Positions 51,015 through 53,107 of a DNA stretch of 64,000 nt are shown piece after piece. This DNA is from Dictyostelium discoideum (Eukaryota). Numbering within the stretch: the stretch's first letter is position 1; the number at the start of each line of letters is the position of its first letter. Both the position numbers and the translations under genes were made by a program. The DNA is taken from NCBI GenBank assembly GCA_000004695.1, contig CM000155.2, positions 736,001-800,000 of the forward strand, in the 5' to 3' direction. The notes beneath the pieces are model-generated. The model had not been told where the DNA came from. It did no database searches and worked only from the letters and a program-made list of their open reading frames with translations.

Positions 51015-51415
51015 TTATAGTTGATGAACAGTCGAAGATTTTTCTTCCTTTTTAGCGATAATTACAACTACACCATCCCTTTTACCAACGGTTGAAGCAG
51101 CTATTGGAGAGGATAATCTAATAACCTTTGAAAAATGACCTTCTTGAATATCAGTTTGTCTACAATTTACTTGAGTATTTGGTACAGAGATTTCTGAACC
51201 GTTTGGAATTTGAATAGTATCTGGTAATGAGATAATACCTTCTAAAATGATATCCATTTGATTGACAGTGATTTTTAAAGCATTTGGTTTATAGAATGGT
51301 ATAAAAGCATAGATTATAAATGATTCACTAGTTTCAGTTACATTAACAGGAATACTATTCTGTTTAAAAAAGTTTACACAACTATTACCACCAATAGTAT
51401 TATTTTGTTTGTTTA

Positions 51416-51452
<37 letters not shown>

Positions 51453-53107
51453 ACCATTTTTCATATTATTATTATTATTATTGTCACATGTTGTTGTAGT
51501 TGTAGTATTTTTATTACCACCACCACCTATAATTGAATTTGAAAATACACTGCCACCACCACTATTTACACCAATACCATCTAATCCATTACCATCGGAA
51601 AACATTGAACCATTATTATTATTATTACTATTATTACTACTATTTGCTAATAAACTTAAAGCTGGTGATGGTGATGCTAAAGTACCCCCACCAATTGGGA
51701 TCACTGTACCAGTTCCTCCAATGGTATAACTATTGTTCACTGCAAATTCACTATCATCAATAGTTGTGTAAGTTCTCTTATTTATTGATTTAATATCACG
51801 TAATTCACTTTCCCATCTTGCCAACTCATCATGAGTGAAAGCCCAATCTGGATGACTATTTTTAAAATCTACACCATAGTTTTTCTGTTGTAACTCACTA
51901 CTATGAATAAATTCAATAAATGGTAACAATGATGCATACTTTATACATGTTAAAAATGCATCATGATTATTAAGTAAACCATTTGAAACATCATGATTCT
52001 TTCTCTTTTTTCTCTTTTTAACATCATTTTTTGATGTTGATCTTTCATTTTCTGCTGATGCAATATAATCTTTAATTGAACCCTATTATTATTTGAGTTT
52101 TTATTAATATATACATTACATTATTATTATTATTTTATAAAAAATATACATACTTCATCTAAATTTTGAAATATAAAAGTATAAACAGCACCACATAAAT
52201 TTGCCATATCATTTGGTTGTTTATATCTTTTATCTAATGAAATTTTATTTGTATATAAAGAGAGTACAGTACTTCTTGGTACACTTGGATTCTTTTTACC
52301 TGGTACAACTCTAAAGTAGAAAGCGAGGAATGTCAATGCTTCCTTTTTCTTATCATCACCATTACCAATTTTAATATCTTGTGAAACTGGTCTAAGATTT
52401 CTTTGTTGAATTAATAATTGTGCTGTAAATACTGGTTGTTCCATTTGTAAATGATTATTTGAATATAGTGGTAAAACTACTGGTGGTGGTGGTGGTGGTT
52501 GTGGTGGTGTTGAATAATGATATTCAATAATTTCTTGTTGTTGTTGTTGTTGTTGAGTCGTATCAGTCGTAAATTGAGCTTGTAATGTTTCTTGTTGCTG
52601 TTGTTGTTGTTGTTGTGGTTGTTGTTCTTCTTCTTGATTTTCTTTTAATTCCTGCTGTTGCTGTTGTGGTTGTAGTTGTTGTTGATGTTGTGGTTGTTGT
52701 GAATTTTGTGAATGTTGTGATAATAAATCAGAGAAAGATGGTAGTGGTGATTCTACTGTTAGTTTAACAGATTGATCAACAACTTGGTATTGGTGATCAT
52801 GATCTGAGAGTTTTTGTTTTTTTAATCTTTGTTCGTCATCATCATTATCATTATCTCCATTGGATTGTGCATCAATGCTATTTATTGTATCTTTTACTTC
52901 TTTGGCTTGTTGTTGTTGTAGTTGTTGTTGTAGTTGTAGTTGTTGTTGCTGTTGTTGGAGGAGGATATTTGAAATACTACCACTACTGCTAATACTGTTG
53001 GTATCTTTATCTTTACCATCTTTACTCATAAATAAATAAAGTGGAGAATTTTGTTCGAGTAAATTTGGTGTTTCGATAGCATCCATTAAAAATGCACTTT
53101 CTTCCAT
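51015..53107 (-). CDS. PolyQ protein with putative winged-helix DNA-binding region and C-terminal alpha-crystallin/HSP20-like domain; 2 exons (53107..52154, 52082..51015), ~673 aa
   Basis: Exon 1 is polyQ-rich, then …DIKIGNGDDKKKEALTFLAFYFRVVPGKKNPSVPRSTVLSLYTNKISLDKRYKQPNDMANLCGAVYTFIFQNLDE, which resembles RFX (…LPRSTLY…NAASFGKLIRSVF) or HSF (…FKHNNMASFVRQLNMYGF) recognition helices. Donor GAA|GTATGT at 52153. Acceptor aatAG at 52083-84. Exon 2 has an NLS-like KKRKKRK and a poly-Asn/Gly linker, then SFIIYAFIPFYKPNALKITVNQMDIILEGII…EGHFSKVIRLSSPIAAS…RDGVVVIIAKKEE, an ACD/HSP20-like beta-sandwich pattern. The reading frame is consistent across the splice. Confidence 0.6.

Follow-up and report, generated by a model that had tools for sequence, protein, structure and literature searches.

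A Dictyostelium discoideum protein that joins a family-specific N-terminal module to a divergent alpha-crystallin domain

The locus and its gene

The DNA considered here is a 64,000-nucleotide stretch of the Dictyostelium discoideum AX4 genome (contig CM000155.2, positions 736,001 to 800,000), called the window below. On its minus strand, at positions 51015..53107, lies a two-exon gene whose spliced product has the same sequence as D. discoideum DDB_G0291854 (NCBI/UniRef; P0001), a protein of 673 residues (75 kDa, pI 5.4) that is annotated as a hypothetical protein. The protein joins a conserved N-terminal module to a C-terminal alpha-crystallin domain (ACD), and the identity of these two blocks, as well as what they may do together, is the subject of this text. 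A literature search for the identifier DDB_G0291854 returned no paper mentioning the gene.

DDB_G0291854 is a real two-exon gene. Its complete coding sequence, with intron and stop codon (51015-51017), takes up 51015..53107 on the minus strand. Exon 1 (52154..53107, 954 nt, phase 0, ATG at 53107) encodes residues 1-318 and exon 2 (51015..52082, 1068 nt, continuing the frame of exon 1) encodes residues 319-673 and the TAA stop codon; both lengths are divisible by three. The A+T-rich intron of 71 nt that separates them (52083..52153, GTATGT...AATAG) had been proposed in a preliminary description of this DNA. It contains in-frame stops when read through, and the alignment of the orthologues is collinear and ungapped over the exon junction between FQNLDE and GSIKDYI, which confirms it. 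The peptides quoted in the preliminary description were all found on the minus strand: VPRSTVLSLYTNKISLDKRYKQPNDMANLCGAVYTFIFQ at residues 276-315, where exon 1 ends, KKRKKRK at residues 340-346 in exon 2 and the C-terminal text at residues ~570-666.

Ten close homologues from Dictyostelium, Polysphondylium, Acytostelium and Tieghemostelium, together with metagenomic sequences, were aligned, and two blocks of high conservation are seen. The mean column identity is 67% in the N-module (residues ~236-422) and 78% in the C-module (residues ~556-673), compared to 45% for the entire alignment with its unalignable low-complexity regions counted in. These blocks are the two regions that had been singled out beforehand. 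They are preceded by an acidic, glutamine-rich low-complexity region (residues 1-235, 52403..53107, minus strand as are all features of the gene) that is 26% Q, has a pI of 4.3, ends in a proline run and is poorly conserved. Several poly-Q runs and PPQPPPPPP stand upstream of VPRSTVLSLYTNKISLDKRYKQPNDMANLCGAVYTFIFQ in exon 1, in agreement with the long polyQ described before. The first part of the N-module (N1, residues 250-334, 52035..52360) extends across the intron, has a winged-helix-like core and contains VPRSTVLSLY...NDMANLCGAVYTFIFQ. The basic cluster KKRKKRK (residues 340-346, 51999..52019) follows in a disordered loop, with a predicted local distance difference test score (pLDDT) below 50, and resembles a classical nuclear localisation signal (NLS). 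The second part (N2, residues 355-422, 51771..51974), HDAFLTCIKYASLLPFIEF...HPDWAFTHDELARWESELRDIK, consists of a helix, short strands and a terminal helix, which is long and carries an invariant tryptophan. A low-complexity linker rich in N, S, T and G (residues 423-555, 51372..51770, 29% N) is variable in length and is almost missing in the homologues P0005, P0009 and P0010. The ACD and its conserved C-terminal tail (residues 556-673, 51018..51371) complete the protein, with strands beta2-beta9 at residues ~564-663 and a tail that ends in ...TVHQL.

The two conserved modules and their family

The C-terminal ~118 residues are a genuine, divergent small heat-shock protein (sHSP)-type ACD with a long beta6 loop. 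The AlphaFold model of this region (pLDDT 81) has the seven- to eight-stranded beta-sandwich fold of an ACD, and the sHSP-like signature motifs EGHFSKVIRLSSPI and GKRDGVVVIIAKK can be read directly in the C-module. In profile comparisons with hhalign the dictyostelid C-module matched canonical sHSPs with 97% probability (E 7e-11, 108 columns) and the whole-family C-module with 98% probability (E 1e-13), the matches covering 100-113 columns. When the family profile was run exhaustively against 1.84 billion proteins, P0025 was found at E 6e-5 and P0027 at E 8e-4. These two proteins score 50.8 and 55.2 bits against Pfam HSP20, for which the gathering cut-off is 20.8 bits, and P0025 carries the JGI name 'HSP20 family protein'. 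The Trimastix member, the most distant in the family, is the only member to pass this cut-off (22.7 bits). One of five close homologues reached E 0.013, and the D. discoideum protein gave no match to Pfam HSP20 in a single-sequence search even at E<=10. A phmmer search of the PDB with the single sequence found nothing meaningful, and a response regulator matched at 17 bits in single-sequence searches (HFSKVI.LSSP) was rejected as a chance local similarity.

The preliminary description had offered two identities for the C-terminus, an HSP20-type ACD or a p23/CS domain. The first was borne out by the profiles. The second was rejected at the sequence level (hhalign probability <1% against p23), and in a comparison with the CS/p23 domains of PIH1D1, SGT1, p23 and SHQ1 the C-module was not closer to CS/p23 than to the ACD in fold or sequence. 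The ACD half of that description is therefore correct but had already been flagged automatically, as the UniRef name of the protein is 'SHSP domain-containing protein'. In every family member a hydrophobic C-terminal tail is found 8-10 residues past the final ACD strand (T[VI]HQL, KTII, VVV, RVVL or RMVF). These tails may act as IXI-like motifs that dock in the beta4-beta8 groove.

The N-module of ~185 residues is a family-specific domain that is always paired with the ACD and is divided by the disordered loop rich in lysine and arginine. Its AlphaFold model is confident at residues ~255-335 and 356-375. The predicted order is H1 (250-264), a strand (265-267), H2 (278-285), H3 (298-314), H4 (318-334) and the disordered KKRKKRK loop, after which H5 (357-366), short strands (LLPFIEFI) and the long terminal helix with the invariant Trp are predicted. 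The preliminary description had noted KKRKKRK as a basic, NLS-like element, and the loop is in fact present in each family member with 7-14 K/R residues; it is the sole universally conserved basic feature of the family. Low-complexity insertions of ~110 residues are found exactly at this loop in Cavenderia DFA_08465 (P0011, residues 622-731) and in Synstelium (P0012, residues 472-585), where they divide the N-module into two halves that are each detectable alone. The loop is therefore a tolerated hinge joining two sub-domains.

The N-module core resembles an RFX-type winged helix only loosely. The comparison used an alignment of 25 RFX sequences whose PF02257 domain had been verified, and PF02257 is present in all true RFX fragments. 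Pfam RFX_DNA_binding (PF02257) did not match the query or 15 other family members, even at E<=10. With hhalign the N-module scored 17.4-18.2 against RFX (P 0.007-0.02, probability 2-5%), which is above 199-200 of 200 column-shuffled RFX profiles, and unrelated winged-helix controls came near this result (FOXA3 P 0.02, HSF1 P 0.04). The register shared with RFX includes H1, strand 1, a helix 2 of the form [RK]xx[VL]..Y and the start of H3. The score holds with the distant family members alone and is therefore not due to the 'PRST' coincidence in D. discoideum; the 'PRST' match is not conserved across the family. The wing of RFX, RRLGxRGxSKYxYxG, makes major-groove contacts in the RFX1 structure 1DP7. 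This motif is seen in the RFX alignment and occurs in no family member; in its place H3 is followed by a helix (residues 318-334) and the disordered K/R loop. H3 itself (PNDMANLCGAVYTFIFQ), the putative recognition helix, has no Lys or Arg. Because the wing is absent, Pfam gives no match, the controls score nearly as well and H3 lacks basic residues, membership in the RFX family is not established.

Other searches with the N-module had similar outcomes. Profile hidden Markov models of the N-module found nothing significant in the PDB. Sub-threshold hits of the dictyostelid profiles were to the CaMKII hub, to a fimbrial protein and to eS25 (the last at E 0.46, over the basic loop and the first helix of N2), and all were rejected as non-significant. 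A word-indexed search with a diverse N-module alignment added two fragments and no Pfam-annotated relatives. ARID, HSF, forkhead, ETS and histone H5 profiles were also compared by hhalign, and none of them beat RFX or reached significance. Neither an HSF-type DNA-binding domain nor an ARID domain was found N-terminal to the ACD. DNA binding by the N-module is at most putative, and assignments to HSF or ARID have no support in the sequence. Of the earlier proposal of an RFX- or HSF-like winged helix, a weak RFX-like register (hhalign P ~0.01) is what is left: the wing and the Pfam match are missing and the HSF part fell away. The profile and structure checks that had been suggested for both regions upheld the HSP20/ACD identity of the C-module and yielded no significant winged-helix match for the N-module.

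An exhaustive profile search returned 24 proteins in total, and the family of DDB_G0291854 appears to be lineage-restricted and mainly amoebozoan. Named members include Cavenderia DFA_08465, Synstelium, Clastostelium recurvatum, two transcripts of Phalansterium solitarium and one transcript of Trimastix marina. The N-module precedes the ACD in Dictyostelium, Polysphondylium, Acytostelium, Tieghemostelium, Cavenderia, Synstelium, Clastostelium and Phalansterium, complete transcript open reading frames (ORFs) among them, and this order is kept in all full-length members, from more than 12 species. Since all full-length members keep the N-module, the ACD and the K/R loop, the fusion is ancient and selected and not an annotation artefact. 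Two sequences from the searches stand somewhat apart. The full-length member P0023 (344 residues), with both N-module and ACD, comes from the Trimastix marina transcriptome and is attributed to a metamonad, outside Amoebozoa; this may reflect contamination, horizontal transfer or an older origin. P0026, a metagenomic protein of 534 residues from a Logan contig, has the same ACD subtype, closest to that of the Clastostelium-like members, behind an N-terminus with a RING/Sina-type zinc finger and a coiled coil, and has no N-module. With this combination of zinc finger and ACD, the ACD looks like a portable module.

Possible functions of the protein

The reading preferred here, tentatively and at somewhat below an even chance, is that DDB_G0291854 is a nuclear adaptor that oligomerises via its ACD, and neither a classical heat-shock holdase nor a sequence-specific RFX factor. 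The KKRKKRK loop would be a classical monopartite NLS and could perhaps also make non-specific contacts to nucleic acid. ACDs generally dimerise or oligomerise, and the ACD of DDB_G0291854 would follow the pattern of non-metazoan sHSPs and form a dimer or oligomer by means of its beta6 loop and the hydrophobic tail conserved at the C-terminus. The N-module, with a winged-helix-like core of RFX/ARID2 type that lacks the DNA-reading wing, may mainly offer a surface on which proteins or nucleic acids dock. Together, an NLS-like loop, an oligomerising ACD and a docking N-module would point to a mode of action like that of plant ARID2/3/4-ACD proteins or IDM2/IDM3-type nuclear ACD proteins, which are oligomerising subunits of chromatin or transcription complexes.

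The plant ARID2/3/4 subgroup may be regarded as the closest functional analogue. In these core subunits of PEAT chromatin complexes an ARID domain and a Lys-rich loop are combined with a C-terminal ACD, to which homo-oligomerisation is ascribed (PMC12071340). The layout of DDB_G0291854, with an N-terminal domain putatively of the helix-turn-helix class, a lysine-rich loop and a C-terminal ACD, is similar. However, the DDB_G0291854 family is amoebozoan and lacks an ARID domain, and the resemblance is one of analogy or convergence and not of orthology. The preliminary description had called a DNA-binding protein with a chaperone-like beta-sandwich an unusual architecture, which is overstated because a DNA-binding domain followed by an ACD is known in plant ARID2/3/4 (PMC12071340).

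Several observations weigh against the adaptor reading. Nuclear localisation is predicted from one feature, the NLS-like motif. An ACD alone is compatible with a chaperone function. The AlphaFold model of the N-module is of moderate quality (mean pLDDT 67, predicted template modelling score 0.62), and a Foldseek search of the PDB with this model gave no match. The sequence evidence for RFX or any other winged-helix family is not significant in Pfam, PDB profiles or hhalign. The positive charge of the N1 core (+5 to +7, pI 9.6-9.9) is confined to dictyostelids, and in the members from Clastostelium and Phalansterium this core is neutral or acidic. The tail of the D. discoideum protein (51018-51032, minus strand, residues 669-673) reads T-V-H-Q-L and is not an I-x-I.

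The strongest alternative, although an unlikely one, is that DDB_G0291854 is a large, atypical sHSP-type holdase, in which the ACD and the low-complexity and N-terminal regions bind unfolded or poly-Q/N clients or drive condensate formation, and the N-module binds clients or partners and has no role with nucleic acids. In favour of this reading are the sHSP motifs and the beta6 loop of a genuine ACD, as well as the long stretches of the protein that are rich in Q and N. D. discoideum also has many ACD proteins, and one of them, HSP48, in which an ACD is joined to a charged disordered region, forms condensates (PMC6584373). When DDB_G0291854 is set beside M. jannaschii Hsp16.5, Xanthomonas HspA and E. 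histolytica HSP18.5 (PF00011), the differences are considerable. The subunits of sHSPs are small, 12-43 kDa, with a short, variable and typically disordered N-terminal region. In contrast, DDB_G0291854 with its 673 residues lies far beyond this range, its ACD is at the extreme C-terminus behind a folded, strongly conserved N-module of 185 residues and scores below the Pfam cut-off, and the canonical I-x-I motif is missing. The low-complexity parts that would bind clients are not conserved and are nearly missing in several homologues. Stress inducibility, which along with large oligomers and ATP-independent holdase activity is a mark of sHSPs, finds no support upstream of the gene: no three-unit heat-shock element (TTCnnGAAnnTTC, <=1 mismatch) occurs in the 2.1 kb at 53108-55270, and window-wide there are 22 matches to this element compared to 38 expected by chance. 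The suggestion that the protein could be a stress-responsive regulator is not sustained by this result.

Less probable again is a sequence-specific transcription factor with a highly diverged RFX-type winged helix, in which the ACD would dimerise in place of the RFX dimerisation domain. The hhalign register, which is retained by distant members, the score above nearly all shuffled profiles and the basic dictyostelid N1 core with its adjoining K/R-rich loop are what this reading has in its favour. Comparison with RFX1 (1DP7), RFX5 (8ZJR) and the RFX-like domain of ARID2/BAF200 (PF02257) argues against it. Unlike these domains, the N-module has no Pfam match, an hhalign probability of <6%, with the FOXA3 and HSF1 controls coming close in P, no wing and an H3 devoid of basic residues. 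After H3 come one more helix, the basic disordered loop and then the other conserved half of the module. The empty Foldseek result, the unconserved 'PRST' and the neutral or acidic N1 core outside dictyostelids count against it as well. A related proposal, which we likewise consider improbable, is evolutionary in kind. The N-module would be a wingless descendant of an RFX/ARID2-type winged helix and the family a set of Amoebozoa-specific nuclear regulators in which the ACD has replaced the dimerisation domain, in convergence with the plant ARID2/3/4 design of the PEAT complex.

That the N-module and ACD genes were wrongly joined in annotation, or that the fold similarity is due to chance, is effectively refuted: the 133-residue low-complexity linker and the short metagenomic fragments P0014 and P0018, which carry the ACD alone, would fit such an artefact, but exon 2 reads as one ORF, with no interruption, over the second N-module half and on through the ACD, the N+C order recurs across the family even in the near-linkerless homologues and in complete transcript ORFs, and the ACD homology is statistically strong. 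The remainder of the probability falls to something other than an adaptor, a holdase, an RFX-like factor or an artefact.

Surroundings of the gene and significance

The window is extremely A+T-rich, and homopolymer A/T tracts of 30-70 nt lie on both sides of the gene (50500-50530, 50706-50739, 50844-50913, 53141-53175 and 53235-53265). Such long tracts are typical of Dictyostelium intergenic DNA and have no special significance. Within very A+T-rich intergenic DNA a G/C-rich imperfect palindrome, GGGGGGGGGGGTTGGGTTTAACCCCACCCC, is found at 53361-53391, ~255-285 bp upstream of the ATG, and a second G/C-rich island is found at ~53915-53945. The palindrome might be a developmental regulatory element of the G-box type. 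The downstream neighbour (48433-50502, minus strand) has a threonine/serine-rich N-terminal exon (49969-50502) and an ORF of 510 residues with a WWE domain (Pfam, 41 bits). Further away, an ORF at 41729-44071 (minus strand) has long poly-N runs and about 7 copies of an ~18-residue tandem repeat, QSPIQKTPKQTPEEQQPKTPN, and no Pfam match; the poly-N runs and repeats account for the GC skew of +0.64 and the AT skew of -0.53 in the 42-43 kb bin. A queuine tRNA-ribosyltransferase ORF (34747-36090, minus strand; Pfam TGT, 497 bits) is in a 1-kb bin with 43.5% G+C, a value that no other bin of the window reaches, the content elsewhere being ~15-30%. Scans of the window for tRNA genes and Rfam families gave no match.

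What is new here is the definition of an amoebozoan family with N-module and ACD and the weak RFX-like fold signal; the ACD call itself was already automatic in UniProt. DDB_G0291854 does not appear among the D. discoideum ACD proteins that Table 1 of PMC6584373 gives as newly identified. The analysis adds an ACD protein to those listed there and opens a hypothetical protein to tests of its localisation, self-association and N-module binding partners. No long-standing question is opened by the family, and its interest would rise if the N-module were a DNA-binding RFX derivative. ACD proteins are usually regarded as small stress chaperones, and multi-domain nuclear ACD proteins have been documented mainly in plants. 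The family described here extends over a broad range of Amoebozoa and has its ACD permanently joined to a folded module, as yet uncharacterised, and to a basic NLS-like loop, which suggests that the ACD has repeatedly been reused as an oligomerisation module for nuclear machinery.
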